Below are positions 730 to 18,657 of a stretch of DNA of 64,000 bases, piece by piece. The first letter of the stretch is position 1; each line of letters starts with the position of its first letter. The stretch comes from a virus (lineage: Duplodnaviria > Heunggongvirae > Uroviricota > Caudoviricetes). The position numbers were made by a program, and so were the translations under genes. The notes under the pieces were generated by a model. The model had not been told where the DNA came from and did not search any database. It was given only the letters and a program-made list of their open reading frames with translations. The stretch is from IMG/VR virus record IMGVR_UViG_3300029468_000001; one strand, given 5' to 3'.

Positions 730-776
730 TGGAAACTATAGGACTTGAACCTATAACCATTCACTTATGAGGTGAA
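730..776 (-). pseudogene. 3' half of a tRNA with CAT anticodon
   Basis: Minus strand: TTCAC-CTCATAA-GTGAA anticodon arm, ATAGG-TTCAAGT-CCTAT T arm, AGTTTCCA end; no D arm or 5' acceptor strand. Confidence 0.7.
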
Positions 777-860
777 AGCTAGAATTAATAATATTTCGCT
801 TGACATTTTACCAAATAATCTAAACTAATTATTAACATAAAAGATTATTCCATTAATCTT

Positions 861-3499: not shown

Positions 3500-3650
3500 A
3501 TCGTGTGCAGCTCCTTTCTTTATCTTATGAGCCTATTATATTACTCTTTAGATTAGATGTCAAGATATAATCTAAAGATTTAATCTATAAATCAATTTAT
3601 TTATCTCAAGTTCTATGCTATAATACAATTTAGATACGGAGGGATGTATT

Positions 3651-4052
3651 ATGATGAAACTTGAGGTTAAAAGGTATGTAGATGAGAATTATAAAAACAT
3701 TAATCAATTTGCTGTCGCACTTGGAATAGGCTACCAAGCAGCTTGTAAAATCTACAATGGCGAAACTACAAAAATCGCATTTGATACACTTGAAAAAATG
3801 TGCGAATTATTTAATTGTACCCCAAATGATTTATTAATTTCAACTAAGCAACCGCAAAAGAAAAAGAATATAATTAGGGTTTATCATTCACAAAATCAGA
3901 AAAATAATAAAAATAATACTGACGCTTATGTATCTGACTCTAATAATGAACTCAAAAAGGCAATAGACAAAGCAACGCCAAATATAAATCAAATATTCTA
4001 TAATATAATGTTGGATGTATTAAACTCAAACAAGAAGGACGATGATAAATAA
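3651..4052 (+). CDS. Xre/Cro-C1 HTH regulator (candidate repressor)
   Basis: HTH ending TLEKMCELFNCTPNDLL; divergent from the MazF-like gene. Confidence 0.8.
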   Translation: MMKLEVKRYVDENYKNINQFAVALGIGYQAACKIYNGETTKIAFDTLEKMCELFNCTPNDLLISTKQPQKKKNIIRVYHSQNQKNNKNNTDAYVSDSNNELKKAIDKATPNINQIFYNIMLDVLNSNKKDDDK

Positions 4053-4105
4053 TCATCGCCCATACATACGCAACATAAAATTTAAAAAAACAACCTTTCA
4101 TCTAA

Positions 4106-4639
4106 TCATTCCAAATCGTCAATAAGTTTCTTTACACGTTCAATCTCTTCTGCTGTATGTGGTGTTCCACCAGCGTTCATATCAATATACCATTGCAATA
4201 CTTCTCGTTCTGTCTTTAAATCATTCACATTCAATTTTACAGTATGACTATTTAACATCGCTAAATCCGTATACTCATTGAAATATGATCCAAATACTTT
4301 GATTTCGTTATTGATAAATCTGCAAATAGCAGTCAATCTTTGCAATCCATCTACACACACAAAATCATTGTATGCTCCATCTGGAACAGACCAATGCCAT
4401 GATGGGCAATTAAAGTATATGATATTTCCGCTTTTACCACCTTTAAGAAAGAACTCCAACCATGCAATCTGCTGTTCCTCTGTCCATACATGTCCTCTCT
4501 GGAAATCTGGATTAAGCTGCAAGTTCATATCTTCTTCCATATCTTTAATCCATCTAGGAACTCTGCTTATATTTACATCGCATTGGTAGTTACCATCTCT
4601 TGTAAATTGTGGTATATCCTTAAATTTTGTATACTTCAT
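4106..4639 (-). CDS. DUF262 (ParB-like) domain protein
   Basis: PDFQRGHVW and VDGLQRLT motifs; start placed at MKYTKF. Confidence 0.8.
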   Translation of the reverse strand: MKYTKFKDIPQFTRDGNYQCDVNISRVPRWIKDMEEDMNLQLNPDFQRGHVWTEEQQIAWLEFFLKGGKSGNIIYFNCPSWHWSVPDGAYNDFVCVDGLQRLTAICRFINNEIKVFGSYFNEYTDLAMLNSHTVKLNVNDLKTEREVLQWYIDMNAGGTPHTAEEIERVKKLIDDLE

Positions 4640-4821
4640 GATATAATCCTTTCTGCTCTCAATGTTGTTTCTATCGCAATAACGGTACACCCAATAACTT
4701 TTGCTATCTCTTCAAACGATTTGCCATCTTTATACATTTTCTTAATATTTTCAATATCATTATAAGTAAACCAATTTCCCAATTGTATCACCTCACTTGA
4801 AAGCTAGATTTCAGTATTGCA

Positions 4822-5214
4822 TTATTCAATTCTAATCTCTGTCACACTACCATGCATTTCGTCATACAATTGCGAAGCAATAGTCTCCAAATCATCAAAA
4901 TAATAATCCCATAAATCACATTGAAATCCATCTGGTGTGTCATTAATATAATATGTCGTGTCTAAATCCGTATCAATTGCCACAACAATACTATCGAATC
5001 CACGTTTCTCTGCATCTACATACGCAGATGTAACTTGTTCTAAAAACTCATCCTGATCCATCTGTTCTTCTAATAAATCATATCCTACACTAATATTTTG
5101 ATTAGCGTATTCATCTGCAAATTTTTCCAAATCTTCTTCCGTTTTTACCCATTCTGGAACTGTAACAATATCTTCACCGCTTAATTCTACCCATACTTTT
5201 ATTTTCTTAACCAT
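4822..5214 (-). CDS. hypothetical acidic protein (cassette-like)
   Basis: GGAGG RBS right after the 5228 site; bounded by two junction sites. Confidence 0.7.
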   Translation of the reverse strand: MVKKIKVWVELSGEDIVTVPEWVKTEEDLEKFADEYANQNISVGYDLLEEQMDQDEFLEQVTSAYVDAEKRGFDSIVVAIDTDLDTTYYINDTPDGFQCDLWDYYFDDLETIASQLYDEMHGSVTEIRIE

Positions 5215-5243
5215 TTTTATTCCTCCATGAAAGTCGAAATTCA

Positions 5244-5626
5244 TTATAATATCTTATTCCACAATGATACTTTAACAATTTCATCTATTTCTTTATCTGT
5301 AATTGATAACAATTTCTTAACTTTTTTTCTACCTATATCTGAAAACATAACGCTTCCATATAAGCATCCATAGATATCAACAAATGTCTTTCTTTTAATA
5401 TAGGTATTCTCTTTAATCTTCCAAGATGATCGTCCTCTTCCATAACGCACATTCGCATATTATTTTTTACTACAATATAAATAACTTCGTAAATGTCTAA
5501 TTTCTCACCAGGTTCTCTGTTATCATAATAATTGATAAGTTCATTAATATCTTCTTTATGTCCCACAAAAAACAATTTTCCATCTGGAAATCCAATAGAA
5601 AAAGTACCTATATTAAGCATATTCAC
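5244..5626 (-). pseudogene. probably frameshifted small gene
   Basis: Two overlapping ORFs (5333-5626, 5244-5450) between two junction sites with one RBS. Confidence 0.45.
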
Positions 5627-6241
5627 ACCTCCATAAAATCAGTCTTTCATCTTGTTTTATCACAAATAATTTATTCCACAAACATGATAATATGAATGTA
5701 TTCTTCTTGATAATTCATTTTTAAAAGTTTATCTTTAAATTCTCTTGCTTGCTCTAATGACATAATTTCACTTAACATATAATTACCTGTATATGGTTTA
5801 TACAATACCCTATATTCTTCCATTCTAACTCCTTGCCTCACTCTTTACCGTACTTCTCAGCACATTCCAAACAATAAAATTGATCTTCTTCACCGTCATA
5901 ATACCCATTGCCATAATTTCCATTGGTACATACAATTTCATTATCATCTCTTTTTTCTTCTGTAAATAGAAATATTCCACATTTACAACAATAAATATCG
6001 TTTACCCAACACATTCTACTGTACCTACTTTCTTCAATATTTTCGTCACTTCACTTACACTTATGCAGAATCTTTTCGCAACGTCTTTCTTGTCACCACT
6101 TCTATTATAAGCATTTACAACATCTTCATATGTATATTCTTTCTCAACAGGTTCATTCATTACGCTATCCATAACCTATACTCCTCCATATTCTTTCTAT
6201 AATATACTTCTCTGTAAATCTCATATAATACCTCTATTCTA

Positions 6242-7285
6242 TCATGATACACGCATAGATTCTACCTTAGAAAGTAAGTTTTTAAGTGTATCAGCGTCTA
6301 CTTCCACATTAGTTTCTCTACCAGACTTGATTGCTTCTAACAGAATATCTCTTAAATCGTTAGTTTTCATAGCAATTACCGGAGCATTGTCAATAGCAGA
6401 TTTTACACCGTTATCTATATCTTCAATTCTTTGCGCAACACTATTAAAACATTTTCTTGCCTTTTCTCGCATAACACCGATATATCGTTTCGTTGTCTCA
6501 GTGTCCGTATGTCCATATACAGTTTGTAAAATACCCAAACAATCAGGATCATATTTATTAATCTCATGCGCAATATAGCCAAAACTCTTTCTTAAAGAAT
6601 GGGTACTTACATTCTCAATGCCTAGATAATCAGCTGCTTTTTTAAACTGGTGTCTATATGAAGCTGCCTGTTTCTTAACTTCCCTATCGTATTCGTCCTT
6701 GCTTTTTGCATAAGTCTTTGATTCTCTAGGAAAAATATCTTCGTTTAAATGTTCTAATGGATTAATATTCTCCATAGAACAATACTCATCAATATATTTC
6801 CATGTGACATTAGAGACAGAAATATCAATTGTTTTATCTGTCTTCTGTTCAATCAAAGTATTTAATACTTCTTTTCTTCTTCCATTCTCATAGTAAAAGT
6901 CACTCCATTTTAATGATAAAATGTCTCCGATACGTCTTGCTAACAGGAATCCAAACATCGTAATTAAAAATTCCTGGTGATAATGATTATTTCTAAAGTA
7001 GTCAATCATATTCTTAATATCTTCTTCTCTATAGAACGGATCAACTTCTGTTTTCCCACGCTTCTTAGTTTTCATTGTAATTTCTGATACAAGATATTCT
7101 CCATCATCAGACATATATTTAATCCATATCTGTGATTTATTATTAGAATATTTCAATGTATCAATATCATCATCTTCTGTTTCAATTGGAAAATACTTAT
7201 TTTCTTCTAATACCGAATCAATTTCTTCTAATGATAACACATGATCCAAAAGTCTTTCTCTAATATCATCAATCATCTTTGCCAT
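6242..7285 (-). CDS. tyrosine recombinase/integrase
   Basis: ARRIGD (R), EQKT (K), HSLRK, YGH, TKRYIG (Y): catalytic set intact. Confidence 0.9.
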   Translation of the reverse strand: MAKMIDDIRERLLDHVLSLEEIDSVLEENKYFPIETEDDDIDTLKYSNNKSQIWIKYMSDDGEYLVSEITMKTKKRGKTEVDPFYREEDIKNMIDYFRNNHYHQEFLITMFGFLLARRIGDILSLKWSDFYYENGRRKEVLNTLIEQKTDKTIDISVSNVTWKYIDEYCSMENINPLEHLNEDIFPRESKTYAKSKDEYDREVKKQAASYRHQFKKAADYLGIENVSTHSLRKSFGYIAHEINKYDPDCLGILQTVYGHTDTETTKRYIGVMREKARKCFNSVAQRIEDIDNGVKSAIDNAPVIAMKTNDLRDILLEAIKSGRETNVEVDADTLKNLLSKVESMRVS

Positions 7286-7287
7286 GG

Positions 7288-7473
7288 CTAGTACACCTCA
7301 CTCTTCCTTATCTTCTCTATTTTCTCTTTCTTCTTGTTAAGATGTCGCACTTTTGCCCTTGGTCTGTACTTGTCACATTTCTGGCAATAATGCCAATGGT
7401 TTGCATCTCTACCTTTCTTACATTCACCCATACAGATATAGTACAGGCAAGGTATTTCTCTGTCTTTTGCCAT
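7288..7473 (-). CDS. small Cys-rich protein
   Basis: Multiple Cys/His; GGAGG RBS; directly upstream of the recombinase. Confidence 0.65.
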   Translation of the reverse strand: MAKDREIPCLYYICMGECKKGRDANHWHYCQKCDKYRPRAKVRHLNKKKEKIEKIRKSEVY

Positions 7474-7564
7474 ATTGGTTTCCTCCTATGTTTTTATAAC
7501 TACTTCTTTTGTCAAGAGAAGTATAGAACTTGCTTAACGCATATACAGCGTTAATAATATGTAT

Positions 7565-8473
7565 TTAGCTTACCATTGGTGTTTGTCCTACCATTTCAGT
7601 AGGTGATTTATCGTATGATTCACATAATGCAGCGAATGTTTTAAGAACTTTACTCCATTCATCTTCCTTAATCCATTGAAGATATGGAGATTTACCACGT
7701 TGTTTTAACGCAATTCCGTATTTGTACTGCAAGTTTCTATATAGCTCATTCCACATATCAGGGTAGCGATTATGTGTTACAAGAGCAAGTTTTCTAATTC
7801 CTGCATTAAGAACACTTCTGTCTTTCCATTCAAGAATATCCCCTGCAAGGGCTTTATTATCTTTCTCCAACTTGTCAATATGTCGATTCTTAAATGCAAT
7901 TAATTTTGATGTTGCTACCGCCGCTGCACTTGGATCACCGCTTGATATTGCCATCCCAACTTCTAACATAAGTTTCTGTTCTTCTGTAATATCAATAATT
8001 TTGGTTTCGGATGAAGTCTTTTCTTCTATGTTAAGAAGTTGTGTTCTGACTTCTTTTGCTACATCAGATTGTTGTAATAACATTCCGATTCTTAAAACAG
8101 CTCTTCTACTAAACGCTTTAAGCCCACGATTATTAATTGTGATGATTTGTCCATCCTCAAAAATATATGTAACGGAAGTTTGTTTCTTTTCAACGGAAGT
8201 AATATTTAGTTTACTTCCGTCATAATAACTTCTTGGGAACATCTCAACACCATCTAAATCAATTTCACCTTTATTATTAGAATATAAAATCTTTATATAT
8301 TCCGGTGTTACTTCATAATAATCTGCAACTTGATCAATAGACATCATATCTGTTCCAGGTAAAAGCAATAATTGTTTTACCTTTTCAAGAACTTCATAAT
8401 GATTAACGCACTTATCTCTAAGTGTTCTATCGTTACATAGTGGGCTTTCATCTTGATTTTTAATTCTACTCAT
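7565..8473 (-). CDS. phage antirepressor-like DNA-binding protein
   Basis: RAVLRIGMLLQQSDVAKEVRTQLL motif typical of phage antirepressor-like proteins. Confidence 0.6.
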   Translation of the reverse strand: MSRIKNQDESPLCNDRTLRDKCVNHYEVLEKVKQLLLLPGTDMMSIDQVADYYEVTPEYIKILYSNNKGEIDLDGVEMFPRSYYDGSKLNITSVEKKQTSVTYIFEDGQIITINNRGLKAFSRRAVLRIGMLLQQSDVAKEVRTQLLNIEEKTSSETKIIDITEEQKLMLEVGMAISSGDPSAAAVATSKLIAFKNRHIDKLEKDNKALAGDILEWKDRSVLNAGIRKLALVTHNRYPDMWNELYRNLQYKYGIALKQRGKSPYLQWIKEDEWSKVLKTFAALCESYDKSPTEMVGQTPMVS

Positions 8474-8616
8474 ATTAAAATCCTTTCGTATGTAAAATTG
8501 TTAATAGTTACTTCTAAACAGTATTTCTCCATTTAGTTTGTAAATATTTGCAATCACATAAGCGATCATTTCAATATTTAGTTATCAAGGTACAATTTAT
8601 GTATGGAAAATATGAC

Positions 8617-8727
8617 TTGAAATAGTCCTAGGAATGTAATATAATGAAAAAGACTAGAACTTTGGTTCAAGTTGTTGTAGTGTAGGTTGTCGCTTTGGTC
8701 GGTTGAGAACCTACACTATTTTATTTT
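8617..8727 (+). ncRNA. candidate antisense sRNA (promoter plus terminator)
   Basis: TTGAAA-17-TATAAT (8617-8645); stem 8678-8688/8708-8718 followed by T-tract. Confidence 0.5.
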
Positions 8728-8945
8728 CCACTATGGAAATACTTCATTTCCAGTTTAAAATCTTCATTAATATAACCTTGCATAAATCGTTCCAATACTA
8801 TATTAATTGGAAGTTTTTCTGCTTTGCATTTTTCTTTAAACTGTTCAAGTATTTCTGCATCAATGGAAGTATTAAAAGCCTTCTTCATAATGCTTACCTC
8901 CTTTGATATTGTCATTATACATCTACATGTTGTTATTGTCAACAT
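8721..8945 (-). CDS. small ribbon-helix-helix-like protein (true start probably MKKAFNT)
   Basis: Similar to 16164-16346; beta-alpha-alpha pattern. Confidence 0.6.
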   Translation of the reverse strand: MLTITTCRCIMTISKEVSIMKKAFNTSIDAEILEQFKEKCKAEKLPINIVLERFMQGYINEDFKLEMKYFHSGK

Positions 8946-9208
8946 ATTAATTTGGTTTTACAACAAAAAATACCACTAAATTTTTATTTTTAGTGGTATT
9001 TTTCCGATGAAATGTCTGTTTTAACTATTATGTTTTATTACGATTTTCTTTCCACAAATCGGACAATACTTTATTTTCTTATTAAACCCATCTATACCAA
9101 AATCATACCTACAACAAGTAGTTATACCATCAACCATCATAGTTGTTTCTTTCTTTTTATCTTCCATTTGCACACCAGCTTTCTATATATATGAAACAAT
9201 CTTTCATT

Positions 9209-9472
9209 TTATTCTCTAATTGTTTTGTAATAACTTCCAAACCAGACATGCACCGGAGGATTTTTAGCTCCTGGCATTAAAGAACCGCTTATCATTTCCA
9301 TACATTGACCAGAATCATTCCAATCATCTGATTCCATTTCTTTTTTATGTTCCATCTTTTCTTTTTCTGAATCATAATAATACTGTTCTATAAACTCTGT
9401 ATATTTATCTATGCAGTTATCTCCGTCCCATATAAATTTTGTTGTATTATTTTTCATTTTAATTCTTTTCAC
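9209..9472 (-). CDS. hypothetical protein
   Basis: ORF between junction-like sites. Confidence 0.6.
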   Translation of the reverse strand: MKRIKMKNNTTKFIWDGDNCIDKYTEFIEQYYYDSEKEKMEHKKEMESDDWNDSGQCMEMISGSLMPGAKNPPVHVWFGSYYKTIRE

Positions 9473-9509
9473 GTAATCAGCTCCATTCTATATTAAAAAC
9501 AACTTAATC

Positions 9510-9746
9510 TCATAACATTACACATAGATTTTTCCCATAATATTCTCTTCTTATATGAGGAACATCATTATCAATTTTCGACAATTCAACTTTTTCAAAA
9601 GTTATATTTTTGCAACCATCCATAGTTCTGTTGCCAAATCTATTTTTAGTACATTCAATTCCATTTAATGATTCCTCAACCATAACAAAAGTCACTTCTC
9701 GTAAATGTTTGATTTTTTGTGTTTCTTCATACGTCATATAAATCAT
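9510..9746 (-). CDS. hypothetical protein
   Basis: ORF with RBS after the 9758 site. Confidence 0.6.
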   Translation of the reverse strand: MIYMTYEETQKIKHLREVTFVMVEESLNGIECTKNRFGNRTMDGCKNITFEKVELSKIDNDVPHIRREYYGKNLCVML

Positions 9747-9770
9747 ATCCTTTACAATGAAAGCAATTTT

Positions 9771-9968
9771 TCAACCTCGTTTTGTTTTATACTTTGCGTA
9801 TTTCGACTCTCCAATACAGCCTTTGTATAATTTTCGCAAAGCAGAGCCAAGACCATTCTCCATGTCTTCGTTTACTTGTTCTGCTGTATCAGAAGCATTG
9901 CCTAAAATATCAGTTGCTTCAAACACATAACCTCATTCTCTATCCGTAAAATAAATACTTCTTCCCAT
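9771..9968 (-). pseudogene. small gene with an in-frame TGA
   Basis: MGRSIYFTDRE*GYVFEA... continues to a TGA in the 9769-9773 site arm. Confidence 0.5.
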
Positions 9969-9986
9969 TATATCTCCTTTAAATAG

Positions 9987-10280
9987 TTATCCATTCGCCT
10001 TAATTCCAAATAATTCACAAAGATCTTTATCTTGAACAATATCAACAATTTTAAAATATCTTCTTGCTATCTCATTAAACATATCCATTTGACAAATTGC
10101 TTCCGCTGCTTTAGGATGATTACTTTCTATAAAAGTTTTGTATTCCATCACTAAATCAGAAAATAATTCTTTTTCATTTTCTATTTTACAACTCATTCTA
10201 ATATAACTATTATAACATTCTTTCAATTTATCATTTGGGATACCTATAAATAGATTTCTTCTTCTCATAATACTCTCCAT
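9987..10280 (-). CDS. hypothetical protein (start approximate)
   Basis: Part of ORF 9987-10346; real start likely downstream of the 10294 site. Confidence 0.55.
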   Translation of the reverse strand: MESIMRRRNLFIGIPNDKLKECYNSYIRMSCKIENEKELFSDLVMEYKTFIESNHPKAAEAICQMDMFNEIARRYFKIVDIVQDKDLCELFGIKANG

Positions 10281-10299
10281 TTCTACAAAAGTTTGAAAG

Positions 10300-10536
10300 T
10301 TAAATTTCATCTGGTAGATAATGACCTTCAATATGATAATCTCCATTTTCCATATTGAGATCTGTATTTTCTTTCACCCACTCAATCAATTCATTAGGTG
10401 ATGAAAAATTAATCGCAACTGAAAAATCTTGACACAATGGCAATCCTTCACCAGAATAATCTTTATTCTCCACAATGTTACTCAATCCATATTTAGTTTC
10501 ATTTAATATAATAAAATATTTCCAACTACATTTCAT
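10300..10536 (-). CDS. hypothetical protein
   Basis: GGAGG RBS; stop lies within the 10294 site. Confidence 0.65.
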   Translation of the reverse strand: MKCSWKYFIILNETKYGLSNIVENKDYSGEGLPLCQDFSVAINFSSPNELIEWVKENTDLNMENGDYHIEGHYLPDEI

Positions 10537-10571
10537 TTAATATCCTCCTGAAACTATTCTTTCATCTGATA

Positions 10572-10853
10572 CTATTTCTTAGTATCTTTAAAAAGCACAA
10601 ACCTCTTATTTAAAATATCGACAAAAATTCCATAGCTGTTATTATCTTCGCCAATAGACTTTCCACATGGATACATAACATCCCGGACTTTTCTTCCATC
10701 ACTATACATCAATTCATATCTATCGAAGTAATTTAATGAATTTCCTACGACCTCAAAATCGTATTCTTTATTAATTTCCAGTGGATTCAAACTATCTTTT
10801 TGTGTATTATATTCATTATTATGTTTATTAACGCTTATAACTTTTACTATCAT
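10572..10853 (-). CDS. hypothetical protein
   Basis: GGAGGAG RBS. Confidence 0.65.
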   Translation of the reverse strand: MIVKVISVNKHNNEYNTQKDSLNPLEINKEYDFEVVGNSLNYFDRYELMYSDGRKVRDVMYPCGKSIGEDNNSYGIFVDILNKRFVLFKDTKK

Positions 10854-10921
10854 TAATTACTCCTCCATCATATAAACTATTATCTGTTATTTTACCACAT
10901 ATCAGTCAATTTGTCACTCAG

Positions 10922-11134
10922 CTATATATTTACCGCAGCTTCCAGATAATTATTCAATCTATTATATTCTGACATTGCCCGTAATAACTCAGGAGAACTA
11001 TAGAATAGAAATATAGTTCTATCTTCATCTTCATGACTCTTTTGAAATTTTTCCAATTCAAATCCTTTGAGCAAAAGGTATCCAGCTAATTTTCTTGAAT
11101 AAATCGTCTTATAAATACTTTTTGAAGTTGCCAT
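10922..11134 (-). CDS. DUF5659-like small phage protein
   Basis: IYSRKLAGYLLLKGF...IFLF pattern. Confidence 0.55.
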   Translation of the reverse strand: MATSKSIYKTIYSRKLAGYLLLKGFELEKFQKSHEDEDRTIFLFYSSPELLRAMSEYNRLNNYLEAAVNI

Positions 11135-11212
11135 GATTATTCCCCCATATGTAATATTTGTGTCGATATTTGTGTTGTTTGTAAGATTCTTATGTTAAAA
11201 ACTGGTTTTCAT

Positions 11213-11485
11213 CTATTCTTTTTCAACCATATCAAAAATTTCATCCCAATAAGAATAATTTTGTAATTTTTCTTGCGGAACTAATAATTCATATTCTTCT
11301 TCAATTTCTTCTCGTGATCCATATCCATTAAAACTAGGAAGACTACCAAATAATTCATTATGTTTTTCCATTTGTCTAAAAATAACAATGCTTTTCTCTG
11401 GAAAATTTCCCATGTGTGTAGCGTAGCTATCAATTTGAATAATTGACTTATCTTTTTTGTTTACATAAACATCTCCAAGCTTCAT
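11213..11485 (-). CDS. hypothetical protein (cassette-like)
   Basis: Flanked by sites sharing spacer ACTGGT. Confidence 0.7.
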   Translation of the reverse strand: MKLGDVYVNKKDKSIIQIDSYATHMGNFPEKSIVIFRQMEKHNELFGSLPSFNGYGSREEIEEEYELLVPQEKLQNYSYWDEIFDMVEKE

Positions 11486-11732
11486 ATCATTTCTCCCTAT
11501 TCTATACTGGTTTTCATCTAATCAATTCGTATTAAATCTCCATTAGAATCAGTTACCCATTTATCATTTACAGTTCCACTAACAACAACTTCCATTTTCT
11601 CATAATCTATATGAGCAAGAAGTCCCCTTTCAACCAACCAATTTCTTGCACGTTCTAACTCTTTTCTTGTCTGGAATCTCCATCCTGTCATTTGACCTTT
11701 AATCAATTTATTTCCTCCATGAAATTCTCGTT

Positions 11733-12071
11733 TCAAATTGACTTACATTCTCTGTATTCTGATTCTGTAATTAAACATTCATCATACATATCTTCAAGTG
11801 TTCTAAATACTGCAAAAGCTCTTCTACTTGACCAACAGAATCCATCAAATTCACCTATAAGTGCATCTGTATTTTCTTCTTCTTGTTCCTGCAATTTTAT
11901 TACCAAATCACTCTCACGAAAGAAAAATGCTTTATATTTAGCAGCCTTGATTCTTAACATTTCTATTTCGTATTCTTGTGAAGTTAATTTCTCTTGTGCA
12001 TTTAATAATTCCAATCCTGCACTTCCTAATGGACTGTTCTCAATTCTATTCTTAAAATATTTGTCATTCAT
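11733..12071 (-). CDS. hypothetical protein
   Basis: Stop TGA forms part of the 11720 site. Confidence 0.65.
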   Translation of the reverse strand: MNDKYFKNRIENSPLGSAGLELLNAQEKLTSQEYEIEMLRIKAAKYKAFFFRESDLVIKLQEQEEENTDALIGEFDGFCWSSRRAFAVFRTLEDMYDECLITESEYRECKSI

Positions 12072-12174
12072 AATTATTCTCCAATTATATTAACTCAACA
12101 GTGCAATAATAAATACCGCAATTCCTACATATGCAATTATACATCCTAAAGTGTACATATTCATTCCTCCAATA

Positions 12175-12729
12175 TCATTTATAAATGTTACTTGTAATAT
12201 GAACAGTCGCATAATATGTTCTTCCAATCTCTTTTGCGATTTCCACATTACCCTTATTCTGTTTCATAAGAACTTTAATTCTTCTTCGTTCTTCTGGTGT
12301 GATCTTGTTTCTATGCCTTTCTGGTATGTACGAATTTTTTATACTACACATCCAATCTGGCTCTGGTAATATAGAACCAGTTTCATATTTACGCCAGTTG
12401 ATTTCTGTTTTATGATTTTTCGCCCATTCCCAAAAGTTATCAGGATCAATCAGATATCGTGTCGAATTGGACACTTTAAACTTCTTACATGGAAGTTCTA
12501 ACTTTTCAATCCATCTGATCACAACAGATACATCACAATTGAATGCTTTTGCTATTGTTTTAGCAGCAAGACATTCTCCGCAGTAATGATTAAGACCTAA
12601 TTTCCTCGCCTTATGTTTAACAGATGATACACTTCTGTTCAAAAATTTTGCTGTAGTTTCAACTGATTGATATAGATACCTTCTATACATATAAGTTTCC
12701 TCATCTTTTGTCCATTCTCTTCTTCCCAT
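12175..12729 (-). CDS. multi-HTH DNA-binding protein
   Basis: WTKDEE...LNRSVSSVKHKA and C-terminal IAKEIGRT. Confidence 0.6.
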   Translation of the reverse strand: MGRREWTKDEETYMYRRYLYQSVETTAKFLNRSVSSVKHKARKLGLNHYCGECLAAKTIAKAFNCDVSVVIRWIEKLELPCKKFKVSNSTRYLIDPDNFWEWAKNHKTEINWRKYETGSILPEPDWMCSIKNSYIPERHRNKITPEERRRIKVLMKQNKGNVEIAKEIGRTYYATVHITSNIYK

Positions 12730-12908
12730 ACAATACCTCTTAAAACCTAATATAATTCACCTATGCAACATTTCCCTCAACCATACGTTAAAATTGAAGT
12801 TCTCCATATTTTCTTCTCTTTCTGTATAATTTCCATTATAATTACGGAAACAGTTTCCAGAATCACGTTTGTCTTTATCCCAACATGATACGTGCTTATT
12901 TGTCCTTT

Positions 12909-13127
12909 TCATTCTTTCTTCACCTCTTCCATCAGATATGACAATCCTTTACTATGGTGGCAGTTGAACCAATCATATACTTCATTTTTATTAGTTCCTT
13001 TTGAAAATGCATACCATGCAGTTTTAAGATTTCCGTTACGATCAACAGGAACGCTCTGAAATTTTTTCCATAATGCTTCTACATTTTTATCAATCGTGTC
13101 TTGTAATGTTAATTCTATTTCTTCCAT
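12909..13127 (-). CDS. hypothetical protein
   Basis: ORF in the tightly packed minus-strand run. Confidence 0.6.
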   Translation of the reverse strand: MEEIELTLQDTIDKNVEALWKKFQSVPVDRNGNLKTAWYAFSKGTNKNEVYDWFNCHHSKGLSYLMEEVKKE

Positions 13128-13271
13128 ATAGTTCTCCCATCATTTATGAATTTATTGTATGTTTTGCAAAAAGGATTAAAGCATCTATCTACTAACACAA
13201 ATTTCCCATTAACAAAATCAAAATACTGTTTTCTGCTTTTCTGTCCGCATACATAACAATAAATCATATTA

Positions 13272-13478
13272 TCACTCCATTCTTGATATTGAATTACAAA
13301 TTTTCTTATTGAGTCTCTGATATATTTCCGCTGACTCATCTAATGCTTTAATTACAGATGTTTCACATGTTAATTTTTCTGCTTTGTAAACATTGTCAAT
13401 TAAACAAATCAAACCATTTGATAAAATACTTATTTCCTTTGATGTAAGTTCCAATTTGATTTTTCCATTATTATTCAT
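13272..13478 (-). CDS. hypothetical protein
   Basis: AAAGGAG RBS after the 13493 site. Confidence 0.6.
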   Translation of the reverse strand: MNNNGKIKLELTSKEISILSNGLICLIDNVYKAEKLTCETSVIKALDESAEIYQRLNKKICNSISRME

Positions 13479-14016
13479 ATTTTCTCCTTTTCTGAAATCA
13501 TCATTTCATGCCAATTCTAACCAATATGAGTTTTTTAATCCTCTTGCTGTTTTTATCGTCCCATCACAGATTTTAAATTTTACACCTAATAACATTGCTG
13601 TATTTCCATTTATCTCATATCCTTTACTCTTTAAGTAATGTAAAAATTTATTCATCTTTATTCTCCTTATATTTTCTTAAAATAGTTTCAATTTTATCCG
13701 CAAATTTAGATGTTGTAAGTGTCGGTGTACCATTTAATGCGTTCATAACTATCTGAATTTCTTTTTCTGTTAACATGATTACCTCCATTTTCAGCATGAA
13801 ACTCTTGTTTCATTTATATTCTTATTTATTGTTAAGCACATTTTCCAACGCAATAATTGTTCTTAATGCTTTCATGGCTTCATTCAATTCTAATCTTCCG
13901 ACTTTAATCTCACTAGAATTTGCTAATGCTTCTCGTTTTGCTTTTTTCAACTTTCCTAACGCTTTTTGTTTATCCATAATTTTTACCTCATGATTCTATT
14001 AATGCTCTTGTTTCAT

Positions 14017-14244
14017 CTACACTCTTTTATTCCACATTTTAATTACTGTATATTCTTGCTGTGCATATCCAGGATTAATCATTGCCATACAACCAGTGCA
14101 GAAGATTCTATATCTATCTCCTGCGTTGTGTTTGTATTTGTCAATAACTATTTCCTTTCCACCGCAAAATGGACAAGGTTTTATTTCATCTTCTTTGCAT
14201 TTTCTAATTTCGCCTAATGTAAAATCGTTCATATTATTTTCCAC
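14017..14244 (-). CDS. Lar-family restriction-alleviation-like zinc-finger protein
   Basis: KPCPFCGG...CTGC...WNKR. Confidence 0.7.
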   Translation of the reverse strand: MENNMNDFTLGEIRKCKEDEIKPCPFCGGKEIVIDKYKHNAGDRYRIFCTGCMAMINPGYAQQEYTVIKMWNKRV

Positions 14245-14269
14245 CTTCCATTAAACCTTTGTTTCAAAA

Positions 14270-14602
14270 TTATTCACATTCTGTTTTGATTCTTGAACCA
14301 ACAAAAAACCAATTCTTAGGTTGACTTCTCCATGAATTAGGATCAGCTTCTTTATGTTTGTTGTCATATCCGATTAATAAATTATTTCTATCCAATGAAT
14401 TAACAGTTCTCCCATTAATCTTATAATCATAAATAGGTAAACATTCTTTTTCACCTGTTTTATGAATAATAAATCGTACTCTCCAAAAATCATTAATATA
14501 TCTCAAAAATACATTTCCCTTACCATATTTTGATTCTAAATATTTATATTGTTCTATTACTTCATTCTGTTTTGGTGTAAGTTTCATATTTTCTTCCTCC
14601 AA
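14270..14602 (-). CDS. hypothetical protein
   Basis: Bounded by the 14251 and 14612 sites. Confidence 0.65.
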   Translation of the reverse strand: MEEENMKLTPKQNEVIEQYKYLESKYGKGNVFLRYINDFWRVRFIIHKTGEKECLPIYDYKINGRTVNSLDRNNLLIGYDNKHKEADPNSWRSQPKNWFFVGSRIKTECE

Positions 14603-15004
14603 TTCTCAATTTGAAATATCTCTTTCATCTAATATTCTTCATCCTGATATGCAAAATTTAAACGTTCTCGCATATCTTCAATCTGAAAATGTAAACTGAT
14701 CAATGTATCTTCATCTGCATCTTCATTTACTGTATTCTGATATTCTTTTTTTAACTTTTTAAATTCTTTTTCCAGCTTACAAGAATTCTCATGTTGTCTA
14801 TACATTTATTATTCATCCAATCATTCAACAATAATTTCCATTGAAAAATTAACAGGTGTTATTCTTTTTACTGTCATATCTTTATACGGACATAACGATT
14901 TTTCAACATATGGTGTTTCTACATCGAGTAATATTTTATCTTCCGTTGCTAATATTATCGAATCAGTGTTTAACACTTCCAATAAATCTTTAACCAACAT
15001 AATC

Positions 15005-15208
15005 TTATTTCCTTTCCAATACTTTACAACAACGATCTGCAAGCTCTTCCATCTGTTCTTCTGTGATATGTCTGAATTTCCAACACCAGTCAATTCTATT
15101 ACATATCCAGTCAATACTTTTATCATGCCAAGGTTTATATTCTTCATAAGATTTTAAAGCATTGTCAATTTCTTGATAATAATTTCTATGTTTCTTTTCT
15201 TTCTTCAT
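15005..15208 (-). CDS. hypothetical protein
   Basis: GGAG RBS and ATG start. Confidence 0.6.
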   Translation of the reverse strand: MKKEKKHRNYYQEIDNALKSYEEYKPWHDKSIDWICNRIDWCWKFRHITEEQMEELADRCCKVLERK

Positions 15209-15273
15209 ACTTCATATTCTCCAATTTAAACAGGTGGCACTCTATATCAAGCACCACCTTTATGTATGTAATA

Positions 15274-15993
15274 TTAGCGTTCTGTATATTCCCATCCAGC
15301 AATAAAGTCAAATGCTTCATTATAATATAATGGGTTCAAATCCTTGTAAGAACTACATCCAAACTTTTCTTTTAGCTCATTCCACATATTAATGAAATAG
15401 CTTTTAGAATAACATTTATATTTAGTTCCATGCGCTCCATCCAGAAGTTTATTGATTCTGTCTTTTGCTGCTTTGTATAACTTCTGTTGCTGTCTAGTGG
15501 ATAATGTCATATTTTCCACCATTCTGTTGAGCATTTCTGTCTGTTCTCCAAGAAGATCTTCCATTGCGTTAATCTGAACTGTTTGACCTTCCAACTGCTT
15601 CTCAATAGCACTTCTAAAAGTATTAAAATCAATTCCAACAATAGAAGTATTTGTTTCTTTAGTCATTTCATATTTTCCAGTCTTACGAATAGTCGGAAGA
15701 ACTTCTGTTGTTACCCATAATCGAAATGGTTTAGCGATAGGTTTCTTACTTCTTAACACCAAAGTATAAAATCCAGATTCACTAATAACATTAGCTTCAC
15801 CTTGACGACCTAAGTTGAACTTAGACCGTTCATAAGGCTCTAAACTTGCCATTGCTACCGTTGGATTGCTATGCTCTAAAATCTTACACACGTCAGTTGC
15901 AACAAACCAAGGTTCATTGTCAATTAAAACCATTCTGATTTCCCCAAAATCACCATTAGTAAATACTTTGATCTCATTTCTTTCCATTTGCAA
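15274..15993 (-). CDS. BRO-N / ORF6C antirepressor
   Basis: FGEIR...PWFVATDVC...ISESGFY...WVTTEVLPTIRKTG; C-terminal LKEKFGCSSYKD. Confidence 0.85.
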   Translation of the reverse strand: MQMERNEIKVFTNGDFGEIRMVLIDNEPWFVATDVCKILEHSNPTVAMASLEPYERSKFNLGRQGEANVISESGFYTLVLRSKKPIAKPFRLWVTTEVLPTIRKTGKYEMTKETNTSIVGIDFNTFRSAIEKQLEGQTVQINAMEDLLGEQTEMLNRMVENMTLSTRQQQKLYKAAKDRINKLLDGAHGTKYKCYSKSYFINMWNELKEKFGCSSYKDLNPLYYNEAFDFIAGWEYTER

Positions 15994-16059
15994 TTCCTCC
16001 TGTACTTGCGTGTTATTTAGTTATCAATGTGCATCTGTAAAATATTGGAAATTTTCTGA

Positions 16060-16170
16060 TTGACTAACCAGTAAGAATTAGATATACTAGAATAGTCAAT
16101 CCGCTTTGGCGATTGATGTCTGGAAGAGGTTTGTTGCTGTGGTAGGCGCTAACCTCTTCTTTTTTATTTT
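16060..16170 (+). ncRNA. candidate antisense sRNA (promoter plus terminator)
   Basis: TTGACT-17-TATACT (16060-16088); stem 16123-16131/16151-16159 followed by T-tract. Confidence 0.5.
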
Positions 16171-16346
16171 TCCTGTTGATATATGTCGTAGGAAATATTC
16201 TTCTTGATCTGAATTTTTCCATCAACAAAACCTTGCATTAACACTTCTATAGCTTCATTAAGTTTAAACCCTTGTTTCTTGCATTCAGTCTTAAAAGCGT
16301 TCTGTATAGTTTCCTCAACAGGAGTTGCAAAATTCTTTCTTGCCAT
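16164..16346 (-). CDS. small ribbon-helix-helix-like protein
   Basis: MARKNFATPVEETIQNAFK; paralogue of 8721-8945. Confidence 0.65.
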   Translation of the reverse strand: MARKNFATPVEETIQNAFKTECKKQGFKLNEAIEVLMQGFVDGKIQIKKNISYDIYQQEK

Positions 16347-16493
16347 TGCTTTATCTCCTTTACAATTAGTATATTATCATTCTTTTACTTATTTGTCAAC
16401 TAGCTTTTTATTATTTATTTACTTATTTTCAATTCATAAGCACTATCGTAGTTGCTAAAATTTCCATTCTAGCAGCCACTAACTACAAACGAA

Positions 16494-16772
16494 TCATGCT
16501 ATATGTAATCCTGATGCTTTCAATAATGCTTCAAATGCGCTAATCAATTCCATGCGCATTCTTCTTTTAGAGGTAACACCTTTTCCACCTACTCTTATAC
16601 TATCATCCAGGCGTGTTCTGTATTTCTTTCCTTTAGAATCCGTGAACATATCGACTTCTTCTATTACTCCATTGTCTAATTGCATTCTCATGAATGTATG
16701 TGTATATGGTTTGTTTCCATCTGTATATTCGATAAAGCTTGCTAAATTCTGCATATGTATTTCCTCCATCAA
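16494..16772 (-). CDS. hypothetical protein
   Basis: ORF with GGAGG RBS. Confidence 0.55.
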   Translation of the reverse strand: MMEEIHMQNLASFIEYTDGNKPYTHTFMRMQLDNGVIEEVDMFTDSKGKKYRTRLDDSIRVGGKGVTSKRRMRMELISAFEALLKASGLHIA

Positions 16773-16838
16773 CTAAATATCGCAATTATAATAAGTATCG
16801 TAAGTACAATTCCCAAACAATAACCTAACTCGTACATT

Positions 16839-17276
16839 TTAATCTTCTCCTTTAATTACATATTCACTCCAAATAAAGTGATCTCTTACATATGTTTCTA
16901 CTTCTTCTAACCAATCAAATTTTTCATATTTTCCATTTTCAAAATCAATTGCCATTTCCGCAATTTCCTTTGCTAACACTACACTATCTACTTTGTCGCT
17001 ACTAATAGGATAAACAATTCCTTCGTCTGCCATATCGTAATAAAACTGCATCATAAGAGCAGAAGTTTCGGAAATTTTCCGTTCACGTTCTGTCCTTTCA
17101 CCAAAACGAATCATCTTTAAGATTTCCAGAATCCTGTTTGTATATCCATGAATACCTTCGTACATTAACCAACAATCAAGAATTTCAAATTCTGTATATT
17201 TCTGTTTTATTTCCTCTAATGTTGTATAGTTTGTTTCATTCATATAGTTGAATGCTTCAAGCAATGATCTTTCCAT
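16839..17276 (-). CDS. hypothetical protein
   Basis: AGGAGG RBS. Confidence 0.65.
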   Translation of the reverse strand: MERSLLEAFNYMNETNYTTLEEIKQKYTEFEILDCWLMYEGIHGYTNRILEILKMIRFGERTERERKISETSALMMQFYYDMADEGIVYPISSDKVDSVVLAKEIAEMAIDFENGKYEKFDWLEEVETYVRDHFIWSEYVIKGED

Positions 17277-17438
17277 CGTTTATTCCTCCTGTTTTTTGAA
17301 TATAAAAATAACCTCATAGATATATTCTCTACAAGGCTATAAAAGATACATTTCATCGTCAATTATGCGACTTTCCCTCTTTGTAAATCAGATAACAATG
17401 ATTCTAATTGTTCTAATTTCCATTCTGCATCTATATTG

Positions 17439-17855
17439 TTAAATCATTATATAAGTTTCGCCATCTCCCTTGTTAGCTGCCTCTTCTGCCTCTTCCATGC
17501 TAGAATAAACGCCAAGTGTTTCATAACTTGGTGTTTCGACAACTTCGATTTTCATTGGAGTTGTCTCTAACGTGTCTATAAAGCCCGTCTGCACGAGCTT
17601 TTTTTCATCCTCGTCATACTCAAATTCGTTTTCTTCAATCACATATTCCTCAACTGAGTAAAACGTCATATTGTGATTTTCAAACTTGCTGACGCTTGTC
17701 TTGCGTTTTGCAAGTTCCTTTTTAGCCTCTTCCAGATCGTCAAACGTTTTTATGTATTCGGGATCCGGATCCAAAGCTGTACATCCTTGTTTGATCTCTC
17801 TTCTGTCTCTGCGGTTAAATTCCATCGTTCTTTTTACTAAATCATATTTTCTCAT
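17439..17855 (-). CDS. hypothetical protein
   Basis: GGAGG RBS; somewhat higher GC than neighbours. Confidence 0.65.
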   Translation of the reverse strand: MRKYDLVKRTMEFNRRDRREIKQGCTALDPDPEYIKTFDDLEEAKKELAKRKTSVSKFENHNMTFYSVEEYVIEENEFEYDEDEKKLVQTGFIDTLETTPMKIEVVETPSYETLGVYSSMEEAEEAANKGDGETYIMI

Positions 17856-17899
17856 GTCTATTCCTCCATCACGTTCTTATCTCTATATTATTGATTATA

Positions 17900-18136
17900 T
17901 TATAATGCTTTTAATTTCACAATACCATTATATATAGTAAATTTCCCATATACATAATGGTCTTGTGTAAAATCATAGTCGTAAACGTGCCATAATTCCA
18001 ATTCAGTGTTACATTTATATCTGTTCTTATTCAAGATGTCACAAATTTTCTTTGCGCTTCTATCAGAAGCAAAGAAAGCATATGTTTTTGAATGTAAATA
18101 TTCCGTTCCCTTACTTGTCATTGCAATTAATTTCAT
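17900..18136 (-). CDS. hypothetical protein
   Basis: ORF with RBS. Confidence 0.55.
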   Translation of the reverse strand: MKLIAMTSKGTEYLHSKTYAFFASDRSAKKICDILNKNRYKCNTELELWHVYDYDFTQDHYVYGKFTIYNGIVKLKAL

Positions 18137-18224
18137 GTTATCAATTCCTTCCTTATTATATACTTGTTTAATCGTTCAATCGGCACATAGAAATATTTTC
18201 CGTGTGCCTATCAGCGGTCAAACA

Positions 18225-18407
18225 TTATTCTGTTAATTCTTCTATTGTTTCACATAATCTTAACAGTACAGCTTTTACTACACTATTTCCGTCAAGTTGT
18301 GATAGTTCATTGTACAGTTCTGTTTCCGCTTCTTCTCTGTTTTCTTCATCGTCATAACCATCGGAAATACAATCAATAATTTTTCTTGCTAGTTCTATAC
18401 TATTCAT
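18225..18407 (-). CDS. hypothetical protein
   Basis: Start MNSIEL after GGAGG, downstream of the 18424 site. Confidence 0.6.
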   Translation of the reverse strand: MNSIELARKIIDCISDGYDDEENREEAETELYNELSQLDGNSVVKAVLLRLCETIEELTE

Positions 18408-18657
18408 TTTATTTCCTCCTATCTGAAATTGTACTTTCATCTATTCTTTATTTCCGATATACTTCTATCGGTTTAGCACCTTCGGCTTCTAAGCTATCTA
18501 AAAGTCCGTAAATAGCTTTATTAAGTGTGCTTTTCTTTACTGCCATATCAGTAAAGCTTTTCTGATTTGGAACTGATATATTATATCCGTTTTCGCATTC
18601 TGTTATATGTATATTATTTCCGTTTGACCAGATGTTAATTACCATGCTTTCCACCTC

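Follow-up and report, generated by a model that had tools for sequence, protein, structure and literature searches.

Short repeated elements at gene junctions

Xer/dif sites (11-6-11) and heterospecific lox and FRT pairs share a layout of inverted arms around a 6-bp asymmetric centre, and exchange takes place only between sites with like centres. The attC sites of integrons are imperfect palindromes of ~60–140 bp with conserved R and L boxes, and stand at the 3' end of each cassette. In phage biology, the debate on mosaicism associated with Susskind and Botstein and with Hendrix has set random illegitimate joining followed by selection against conserved linkers. The subject of this work is a 64,000-nucleotide stretch of a member of the Caudoviricetes (IMG/VR record IMGVR_UViG_3300029468_000001), called the window below, in which a 16-bp dyad-symmetric element of the form TRAAA-N6-TTTCA recurs at the ends of small genes in a leftward transcription block. 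These elements are conserved joints of repeated gene exchange between relatives, and they occur in two distant SPbeta-like clades.

The joints resemble dif, lox and FRT in their inverted arms around a 6-bp overlap, with arms that are alike and centres that differ within one genome. They differ in their number and placement (~40 per genome, all at gene ends of one transcription block), in having no linked recombinase and in the 4–5 conserved arm bases of the gut phage clade; as recombination sites they are putative. The array recalls an integron in its co-oriented, mostly promoterless small genes, the repeated site after each, the high turnover and the integrase nearby. The repeated unit of the joints is, however, 16 bp, and long imperfect palindromes of the attC kind are absent; the exchange of genes keeps to the slot (a place in the array), the integrase lies within the array and is variable, and attI and Pc turned up in no scan, none of which was aimed at them.

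A closer precedent is found in T4-type phages, where recombination between the conserved intergenic motifs called promoter-early stem-loops (PeSLs) shuffles genes, according to the available parts of two reports (Arbiol 2010, PMC2839356; Comeau 2014, PMC4122927). As described there, PeSLs are short conserved motifs between the small non-essential genes of hyperplastic regions; they serve as exchange points where the sequences are otherwise unrelated, and the indels and replacements that distinguish close relatives are put down to them. The joints, too, are conserved intergenic exchange points between unrelated genes. PeSLs consist of a sigma-70 promoter and a terminator, recombine by homology and form mini-circles in the same partial accounts (PMC2839356, PMC4122927), whereas the joints are 16 bp long (28 bp in Bacillus phages), lie inside operons, have a slot-specific centre and carry no promoter or terminator.

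Two repressor-bound elements are also similar in part. The stoperators of Cluster A mycobacteriophages occur in 20–30 or more copies in one transcription block, mostly near stop codons, as far as the consulted parts of PMC6550527 and PMC9283540 describe them. In that description (PMC6550527) the stoperator is an asymmetric site, its ligand is a monomeric immunity repressor, and site and repressor differ together from one subcluster to the next. The joints are likewise many short copies between genes beside stop codons, with an A-R-A prefix and confinement to one block, but their arms are dyad-symmetric and nearly invariant from Bacillus to gut phages. We know of no link between stoperators and mosaic breakpoints. 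In SPbeta, the master repressor MrpR (YopR) has a tyrosine-recombinase fold, and its operator is the 15-bp SPBRE, according to the portion of PMC10516654 available. SPBRE thus belongs to the same phage family and is a short intergenic dyad read by a non-recombining protein of recombinase fold; therefore such geometry need not mean recombination. It differs from the joints in having ~10 promoter-proximal sites and another motif, and no MrpR peaks at joints are reported in the part of that study available (PMC10516654).

No description of these joints was found in the literature searched, which did not extend to the 1999 SPbeta genome paper or the supplements of PMC10516654. New here are the argument for DNA recognition, the crossover map, the controlled junction statistics, the finding that no recombinase candidate tracks the joints, and the presence of the element in SPbeta and phi3T.

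The phage and its relatives

The 922-amino acid (aa) product of 32289–35054 (+) is a homolog of YonO by tblastn, with 27% identity to SPbeta yonO, 42% to phage c-st and 39–40% to Enterocloster phages. By this predicted YonO-type single-subunit RNA polymerase the phage is placed as SPbeta-like, a label that makes no claim to the genus Spbetavirus. The window also carries an HU-like gene at 42629. The closest complete relative examined, G001, has a genome of 180,169 bp with terminal repeats; matches in SPbeta were found for only 11 of its 286 open reading frames (ORFs), among them helicase, RecJ-like and YomM genes. Several relatives are classed as proviruses by IMG/VR (G008, G009, G014, G022, G031 and G049), and a third, variable integrase lies at the far end of the leftward block in G001, G004 and MT835469, which together fit a temperate lifestyle, as in SPbeta.

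Anatomy and position of the joints

Counted by strand, TRAAA-N6-TTTCA matches the 64-kb window 22 times (13 sites), as compared with a mean of 3.05 (standard deviation 2.15, maximum 12) in 100 shuffled sequences, none of which reached 22. All matches lie within 4798–18439. Nine sites have the perfect form TGAAA-N6-TTTCA, all at 4.8–18.4 kb. With one mismatch there are 16 matches, 6 of them in the bins at 4–20 kb and 10 scattered elsewhere (at most 2 per 4-kb bin), which we read, by inspection and not from a separate statistic, as background. Each of the 15 sites first listed was found at its coordinates (Table 1), those at 5228 (TGAAT arm) and 14251 (TTTAA arm) being one-mismatch forms. The degenerate copies proposed alongside them held up in part: a site is partly kept at 9192 (5-base centre) and at 11501 and 14000 (5' arm and centre), the copy at 4085 is weak, and that at 773 retains only the centre and 3' arm.

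The array does not end at 4085, where its left limit was first drawn. In G001 there are 25 perfect sites (0 in a reversed-pattern control), and relatives have 20–25 each against 0–1. The sites of G001 span ~54–142 kb of the leftward gene block, and the rightward structural blocks have none at their gene ends. What the window shows is therefore an array truncated on its left side.

Sites are called stop-adjacent here when they lie over, or no more than 24 nt after, the stop codon of an ORF of at least 35 codons, the strand read being the minus strand, which is the coding strand of the site-bearing block in the window. All nine perfect window sites are stop-adjacent, in agreement with their first description as gene-boundary elements, and so are 62 of the 86 perfect sites of four relatives (18/24, 17/25, 13/19 and 14/18), as against 13–18% of random positions. 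The 143 distinct stop-adjacent sites of the window and these relatives yield the sense-strand consensus A-R-A, T-[G 83% / A 17%]-A-A-A, N6, T-T-T-[C 76% / T 21%]-A, T. The A-R-A before TGAAA on the sense (minus) strand gives the motif an orientation, which corrects the first reading. In 42 of the 143 sites the stop codon is a TGA or TAA that belongs to the motif, 22 begin 4 nt past the first base of the stop, and in 79 a Shine-Dalgarno-like tetramer starts -1 to 6 nt after the site. The usual order on the minus strand is thus the upstream stop and site, followed a few bases on by GGAGG and a start codon, and often the intergenic gap is nothing but the site and the ribosome-binding site. At long gaps or operon ends (17340, 11196, 10294, 9008 and 4085) the site stays beside the upstream stop.

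Terminator-like hairpins follow the sites at 17340 and 4085, and a similar, low-GC hairpin can be read after 9008. The region has 10 terminator-like matches on both strands; of the five on the gene strand, two directly follow a joint (17340 and 4085). Promoter-like matches number 116, as compared with 114.6 in shuffled sequences, i.e., there is no excess. Scanned for promoter or terminator character, the gut-clade joints showed neither, and their hairpin is weak.

Joints as breakpoints of gene exchange

The ends of homology between the window and its relatives coincide with the joints. BLAST blocks shared with G001 have edges at 4789, 5243, 9023, 9190, 11724, 13509 and 17339, with a 31-bp island at 18424; comparison with MT835469 gives a block at 9194–9773, edges at 11215 and 13488, and islands consisting of the site only at 5228, 5634, 10549 and 14612. 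Contigs from independent runs stop at 5224, 9007, 10293, 14612, 17359, 18444, 13509 and 13495. The alignment check thus bears out the expectation that breakpoints of gain, loss and replacement among relatives fall at the sites, which bound exchangeable gene units.

A controlled count was made over all tight junctions of the four long relatives, each compared against the others, with genes called by a simple script of our own. Among informative comparisons, junctions with a site were breakpoints in 150 cases and continuous in 20, and junctions without one in 489 and 383, respectively (odds ratio 5.9, Fisher p 5e-17). Within the region equivalent to the window the figures are 47/2 with a site and 95/70 without. 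Site-bearing junctions were breakpoints in 88–96% of cases. Counted per junction, breaks and continuities with a site versus without were 25/1 vs 73/32 for G001 as reference, and 19/2 vs 80/31, 24/1 vs 80/26 and 19/0 vs 58/24 for the other references, so that the association points the same way in every one. The p-values overstate the evidence because the comparisons share history and the gene calls are simple. Of the site-less junctions 56% are also breakpoints, and gene-end exchange therefore does not need the site.

The position of the crossovers was mapped in pairs of sites with homology on one flank only (50 upstream-only, 67 downstream-only). Identity remains at the level of the shared flank throughout the site and its centre (82–96% per position) and drops to background right at the site's far edge. 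Arm variants go with the adjacent flank: identity at position 14 is 62%, which is chance level, if only the upstream flank is shared and 87% if the downstream flank is, and at position 1 it is 90% and 79%, respectively. The crossovers therefore lie inside the site, between arm positions 4 and 14. Where the upstream flank alone is shared, the centre is the same in 39 pairs and another in 9, and 29 lack a site; for the downstream flank the corresponding numbers are 59, 10 and 31. Like centres thus make up 39 of 48 and 59 of 69 site-keeping pairs, a preference that exchange by short homology predicts just as a tyrosine-recombinase site would.

Centres, slots and stacking

The centre of a joint had been described as a variable 6-bp core. 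It varies between slots; within a slot it is conserved across phages. One and the same succession of centres is found in the window, in G001, in MT835469 and in another five IMG/VR relatives: gtacaa, tgtatc, gagata, caagag, tgatga, cgagaa, accagt, gaatag, tttaac, aattgc, gattgt, cagaca, gactga, ttcgac, tccagc and ggttgc. Distances between a given pair of centres vary across phages, from 70 bp to 3.4 kb, and different gene families occupy the interval. When 17 window sites were compared with seven relatives, neither 200-nt flank was homologous in 62 of 82 same-slot pairs; the downstream flank alone was in 14, the upstream flank alone in 5 and both in 1 (score cut-off 35; the highest of 300 random pairs scored 27). 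Among the 62 pairs without flank homology, the run of exact identity across the site measures 15 bp at the median (quartiles 13–18).

Homologous segments that extend to the 5' end have the same flanking centre in 40 of 42 cases, and those that extend to the 3' end in 30 of 37; exchange is therefore within the slot and not shuffling. This bears on the platform imagined in the first-pass annotation, in which the in-array integrase (6242–7285) would capture and shuffle promoterless one-gene cassettes. The genes are indeed small, co-oriented and mostly without promoters of their own, with a site at each unit's 3' end; six families (150, which is Lar-like, 127, 82, 84, 33 and 154) are found in different slots of different phages, and two single-gene insertions lie between copies of the same 5' arm and centre (11501/11196 and 14000/13797). 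Slot-keeping nevertheless argues against it, as do the 16-bp sites, which form no attC-like hairpins, and the integrase evidence given below, and we consider an integron-like platform very improbable.

Some slots are stacked, i.e., hold two alternative genes. After the stop of either gene come TGAAA and the centre belonging to the slot; the internal copy is without a 3' arm in 4 of 4 cases (14251, 14000 and 11501 in the window and one in G006). A deletion in G006 has fused two joints whose centres differ at 2 of 6 bases. The "empty slots" of L056 and G004 were considered as products of site-by-site excision and rejected as such, having arisen by deletions or joins outside the sites.

Recognition of the arms as DNA or RNA

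Changes in the arms are symmetric. The 5'-arm change G>A, which an RNA stem would show as an A.C mismatch, was counted at 28 stop-adjacent sites and the 3'-arm change C>T, which it would show as a G.U pair, at 31; the two are combined at 4. Eight other compensatory arm pairs were looked for and found at no stop-adjacent place. Hairpins of the joints are weak (mean -3.4 kcal/mol over 86 sites), and in the Rfam scan only two tRNAs reached the gathering score, with no family matching the joints. Symmetric degeneracy together with conservation of the arms as sequence therefore argues for a dimer on double-stranded DNA and not an RNA hairpin, and the arms are likely read by a DNA-binding dimer. An RNA hairpin was rejected on the symmetric degeneracy and the absence of compensatory pairs. 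There is a residual asymmetry, consisting of the A-R-A prefix and the TGAAT arm, found at 8 sites with its mirror form at 0.

In a clade with YonO ~82% identical (G026 and G022), the outermost arm bases T...A have become A or G...T, the slot centres being unchanged. Paired combinations at this outermost pair number 17 of 31, with 14.4 expected (hand count; not significant). G at position 0 goes with T at position 15 in 5 of 5 cases, also counted by hand.

The element could instead be purely regulatory, either a stoperator-like roadblock or operator or a hairpin for RNA processing or coupling, with breakpoints that only reflect its filling of the gap. Its fixed place between stop and Shine-Dalgarno sequence would suit such a role, as would its confinement to the leftward early/middle block and absence from the structural block, the asymmetry noted above, and the precedents of MrpR/SPBRE in SPbeta and of the L5 stoperators, 20–30 sites oriented with transcription in the part of PMC6550527 available. 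Gap-filling accounts poorly for the excess of breakpoints over equally tight junctions without a site, which holds in the hypervariable region as well, or for the survival of the site where both flanks have been replaced (62 of 82 pairs). The RNA form further conflicts with A.C being as common as G.U, the lack of compensatory pairs, the weak hairpins and the Rfam result, and the MrpR form with the binding data described below. A purely regulatory element is thus improbable.

The same element in SPbeta and phi3T

At 63–95 kb of SPBc2 the commonest 5-base dyad is TAAAA-N6-TTTTA, with 11 copies; the runner-up has 5 and the highest mirror control 4. A search that covered 121 of the 134 kb of SPbeta found 34 TRAAA-N6-TTTYA sites, versus 4 in the mirror control. 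The rightward early block holds 29 of the 34, and 17 of these 29 are stop-adjacent on the coding strand, the motif's TAA often serving as the stop. The joints carry no annotation in the SPbeta GenBank record. The 51 distinct sites of SPbeta and phi3T conform to T-Y-T N3 TAAAA N6 TTTTA N3 A-R-A, with A at +21 in 50 of 51, an extended dyad laid out as 11-6-11 (28 bp). The recombinase-type geometry first read from the window (5-6-5 in the gut clade) is thus upheld and, in the Bacillus phages, extended. No dominant dyad was found in PMBT24.

Gene exchange at these sites is also seen in the Bacillus clade. Comparing SPbeta with phi3T, junctions with a site are breaks in 7 cases and continuous in 3, and those without in 8 and 30 (p 0.006); with the roles of the two phages exchanged, the counts become 6/3 and 13/29 (p 0.06). 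In the laboratory hybrid Hyb1phi3Ts-SPbeta the early region is wholly phi3T-like and therefore offers no junction to map.

The joints were considered as copies of SPBRE and rejected. The 10 MrpR peaks found by chromatin affinity purification sequencing (ChAP-seq) are all at SPBRE promoters, according to the available part of PMC10516654; the data come from lysogens. Upstream of 9 of the 10 MrpR-peak genes we find a shared motif of the ATACA-N7-TGTAT type, which is not TAAAA-N6-TTTTA. A dyad of the ATACA-N7-TGTAT type is the second commonest 5-base dyad at 63–95 kb of SPbeta.

Recombinases and the origin of the crossovers

The window encodes two tyrosine recombinases (Table 1), and alignment finds the R-K-HxxR-H-Y set, claimed at first for the in-array copy, to be full in both. 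The in-array gene fills exactly a gap in homology to G001 and MT835469 and sits behind its own promoter module; its slot-mates in G001, G003, G004 and MT835469 encode 279–281 aa and are 26–30% identical to it (26% in G001). The gene has itself undergone replacement, and the 121 kb of SPbeta searched, where 34 sites occur, gave no homolog of it. PMBT24, which has an annotated XerD-like gene in the array, has 2 sites against 10 in the control. These observations do not support the part of agent first assigned to the in-array integrase.

The second gene, at 46498–47514, occupies the locus of the SPbeta YomM-type gene and belongs to another subfamily, being 26% identical to YomM and 37–41% identical to recombinases of GR1, SA2, BtCS33 and VPE25. 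At this locus G001 has a 348-aa recombinase with a full catalytic set, 23% identical to the window's copy and 34% to SPbeta YomM (E 4e-57). The locus holds subfamilies 23–100% identical among phages with the same arms and centres, which speaks against this gene, too, as the agent, and joints with the same centres persist where the recombinases at both loci are only 23–59% identical. Cre and Dre, or XerC and XerD, are relatives at this kind of distance, and their target sites differ.

An identity with MrpR was considered for both genes and rejected: neither has BLASTP similarity to YopR or YopP, 46498–47514 has no sequence match to any solved structure, and 6242–7285 has only weak structure matches to XerD. 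No YopR-like protein was found in the window.

Occurrence of the sites with a YomM-type gene looked clean in eight named phages. Sites exceed the control in phi3T (34 vs 5), BUCT082 (38 vs 3) and Perkons (52 vs 6), all with a YomM-type gene of 35–37% identity, and do not in PMBT24, CB473P3 (6 vs 7) and TR-TP1 (6 vs 6), which have none. The association failed in 43 further YonO-bearing IMG/VR contigs. There, G012–G015, with YonO 93–95% identical to the window's, have 45–56 sites as compared with 8–11 in the control and no close YomM-type ortholog, and G025–G027, with an ortholog of 59% identity to the recombinase, and G018–G024, with a homolog of 24%, are all near control under the strict pattern. 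When the outer base is relaxed, G026 has 46 sites (20 stop-adjacent) versus 30 (7) in the mirror control and G022 has 44 (24) versus 22 (6); these carry the window's slot centres (ttcgac, aattgc, caagag), the arms having shifted to RGAAA...TTTCT.

Outside this group, no site arrays were found in the phages with a window-type recombinase: VPE25 has 9 sites vs 6 in the control, SA2 10 vs 4, BtCS33 3 vs 0 and GR1 13 vs 1. In GR1 at least 4 of the 6 sites in the first 40 kb (6618, 17362, 27052 and 37319) lie in repeated blocks and not at stops. In this Geobacillus phage the repeats, which separate genes of the replication block, consist of four TAAAA-N6-TTTTA sites, each preceded by a T-rich stretch and trailed by 'acgttt...cagatataaaaa'; they look like terminator-promoter repeats, a different element with the same inner dyad. 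Judged from these comparisons, no recombinase candidate appears to track the sites.

Against this background, a natural form of recombinase-mediated cassette exchange is a possible but doubtful explanation. A tyrosine recombinase, of the phage or the host Xer pair, would act on the arms and exchange strands across the centre, so that only same-slot sites of two phages would recombine, even with unrelated flanks, and self-deletion would not occur. In its widest form, which we hold to be equally doubtful, SPbeta-like phages from B. subtilis SPbeta to 180-kb gut phages would carry ~30–50 addressed sites at which accessory genes are swapped slot by slot by a recombinase of the YomM/YopP type or by host Xer. 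The inverted arms, 6-bp centre and 11-6-11 layout in SPbeta and phi3T are what such an enzyme would use, the slot-specific centres kept within each slot and crossovers between arm positions 4 and 14 with a patch of only ~15 bp agree with it, and so do the breakpoint frequency at site-bearing junctions and the co-occurrence in the first set of named phages (SPbeta, phi3T, BUCT082 and Perkons vs PMBT24, CB473P3 and TR-TP1). Candidate enzymes are at hand, as every relative examined has 2–4 matches to PF00589 and the window's two recombinases and the 348-aa protein of G001 have full catalytic sets. A recombinase-fold protein on a comparable dyad is provided by MrpR, which uses the 5-7-5 SPBRE in SPbeta-like phages, in the portion of PMC10516654 available. 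Such an enzyme fits less well, however, with the failure of co-occurrence in the 43 contigs, where G012–G015 have sites without a close ortholog and G022 and G026 the same centres; with the 23% and 26% identity of the window's copies to those of G001; and with the 4–5 conserved arm bases in the gut clade. In SPbeta, moreover, the second catalytic Arg is replaced by Lys in both YomM and YopP (two catalytic residues are missing from YopR/MrpR), the G006 deletion joined unlike centres, and internal joints of stacked slots consistently lack the 3' arm.

The explanation we put first, and hold tentatively, is short-homology exchange at a protein-bound joint. The joint is a conserved, dyad-symmetric 16-bp sequence between the stop of one leftward early gene and the next ribosome-binding site, and the genes on either side have been swapped between relatives by crossovers within it. 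These crossovers would be the work of ordinary short-homology recombination, acting on the same-slot joints of relatives that co-infect or are resident. The arms would remain invariant because a conserved, putative DNA-binding dimer reads them, and the differing centres within one genome would limit deletions from joint to joint. Going by the sequence comparisons, general recombination and not a dedicated recombinase likely makes the crossover. This explanation is preferred because it calls for no enzymes beyond those already there (PMBT24, a relative, has annotated RecA- and Gam-like genes), site-less junctions also break, no recombinase appears to track the joints and PeSLs offer a precedent. 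The crossover map is fitted equally well by short-homology exchange and by a recombinase.

Several points weigh against short-homology exchange. The identical patch has a median of 15 bp, and ~15 bp is too short for efficient recombination of the RecA or annealing type. The layout, with invariant arms, a slot-specific 6-bp centre and 11-6-11 in Bacillus phages, is what a heterospecific-spacer tyrosine recombinase needs. The insertions between two copies of 5' arm and centre (11501/11196 and 14000/13797) are hard to obtain by reciprocal homologous exchange, and the junction counts are non-independent, genome pairs sharing history, with gene calls from a simple script.

Table 1. Joints and tyrosine recombinases of the window
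Feature	Coordinates	Strand	Evidence
Joint, centre gtacaa, perfect arms	18424..18439	-	Same centre, in order, in relatives; 31-bp homology island to G001
Joint, centre tgtatc, 3' arm TTTTA	17340..17355	-	Terminator-like hairpin directly after; G001 block ends 17339
Joint, centre gagata	14612..14627	-	Site-only island in MT835469; X1 and X4 contig pieces begin at 14612
Internal joint of stacked slot, centre caaagg, 3' arm TTTAA	14251..14266	-	One-mismatch site
Internal joint of stacked slot, 5' arm and centre caagag, 3' arm lost	14000..14015	-	
Joint, centre caagag	13797..13812	-	Motif match; centre kept in relatives
Joint, centre tgatga, TGA is upstream gene's stop	13493..13508	-	97.5% G001 block ends 13509
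Joint, centre cgagaa, TGA is upstream gene's stop	11720..11735	-	G001 block begins 11724
Internal joint of stacked slot, 5' arm and centre accagt, 3' arm lost	11501..11516	-	
Joint, centre accagt, 3' arm TTTTA	11196..11211	-	MT835469 block ends 11215
Joint, centre gaatag, GGAGG directly after	10549..10564	-	Both flanks non-homologous in 7/7 relatives
Joint, centre tttaac, upstream stop inside centre	10294..10309	-	X1 contig piece begins 10293
Joint, centre aattgc, TGA is upstream gene's stop	9758..9773	-	
Joint, 5-base centre gattg (relatives gattgt)	9192..9206	-	G001 and MT835469 blocks begin 9190 and 9194
Operon-end joint, 5' arm TAAAA, centre cagaca	9008..9023	-	Then terminator-like hairpin and consensus promoter; G001 block ends 9023
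Tyrosine recombinase inside array	6242..7285	-	Pfam PF00589 E 7.8e-12; PHROG integrase; R, K, HxxR, H, Y aligned
Joint, centre gactga, 3' arm TTTTA	5634..5649	-	Site-only island in MT835469
Joint, centre ttcgac, 5' arm TGAAT	5228..5243	-	G001 block ends 5243
Joint, centre tctagc	4798..4813	-	G001 block begins 4789
Degenerate operon-end joint (relatives: centre ggttgc, 3' arm TTTTA)	4085..4100	-	Ahead of terminator-like hairpin 4061-4037
Weak remnant, centre tctagc and 3' arm only	773..788	-	Perfect G001 site (centre gtcggc) at about same place
Second tyrosine recombinase	46498..47514	+	PHROG integrase; no Pfam catalytic-domain match; full catalytic set by alignment

Other features of the window

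Within the array, two similar modules on the minus strand (8942–7565 and 16399–15274) each consist of a near-consensus sigma-70 promoter, a small gene and a larger gene. In the first, the small gene is Arc-like (PHROG 3180) and the larger encodes 302 aa of no family; in the second, the small gene has no family match and was read as similar, and the larger has Bro-N and ORF6C domains. The 8942–7565 module is 97.6% identical to G001 though the adjoining recombinase is replaced. A 489-aa transposase-like ORF (PHROG 506, E 2e-50) at 1045–2514 (-) lies within a segment, 876–2548, that is missing from G001, and this stretch is probably an insertion sequence inside the array. An IS110-family transposase (PF01548, PF02371) is encoded at 49924–51213 (+) in a 41.6% GC island of this 30% GC phage; the surrounding 49625–51672 has no match in G001.

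A MazF/PemK-like toxin gene at 3110–3499 (-) overlaps a 92-aa ORF at 2835–3113 and is neighboured by a divergent Cro/CI-type helix-turn-helix gene at 3651–4052 (+), with a promoter at 3563 that matches the consensus at 12 of 12 positions. The whole stretch (2835–4052) is conserved in G001 and MT835469. Between divergent gene blocks, ~4 kb at ~21400–25500 have hardly any credible ORF; GC skew changes there from +0.37 to -0.36, three copies of a ACGTCATACGTATA-like repeat lie at ~21970–22420, and conservation of the region in G001 is 78–86%. An origin or a control region may lie here. At 37185–40805 are tRNA-Met, tRNA-Ser and a PhoH-like ORF that matches only positions 66–197 of the 205 of its profile and has a homing-endonuclease gene (LAGLIDADG/NUMOD1) as its neighbour. 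A split of the PhoH gene is possible; Rfam gave no group I intron at its threshold.

Significance for phage mosaicism

The joints bear on the long-standing question of how phage mosaics join unrelated genes exactly at gene ends, and because the element is also present in SPbeta and phi3T, tractable phages of B. subtilis 168, the question is directly testable. If a recombinase proves responsible, the joints would be a new gene-exchange system with ready orthogonal docking sites for phage engineering, a natural counterpart of cassette exchange between heterospecific lox sites, and would give the old linker idea a molecular form. If no recombinase is involved, they would stand as the clearest example, T4-type phages aside, of mosaicism being steered by a conserved intergenic motif.

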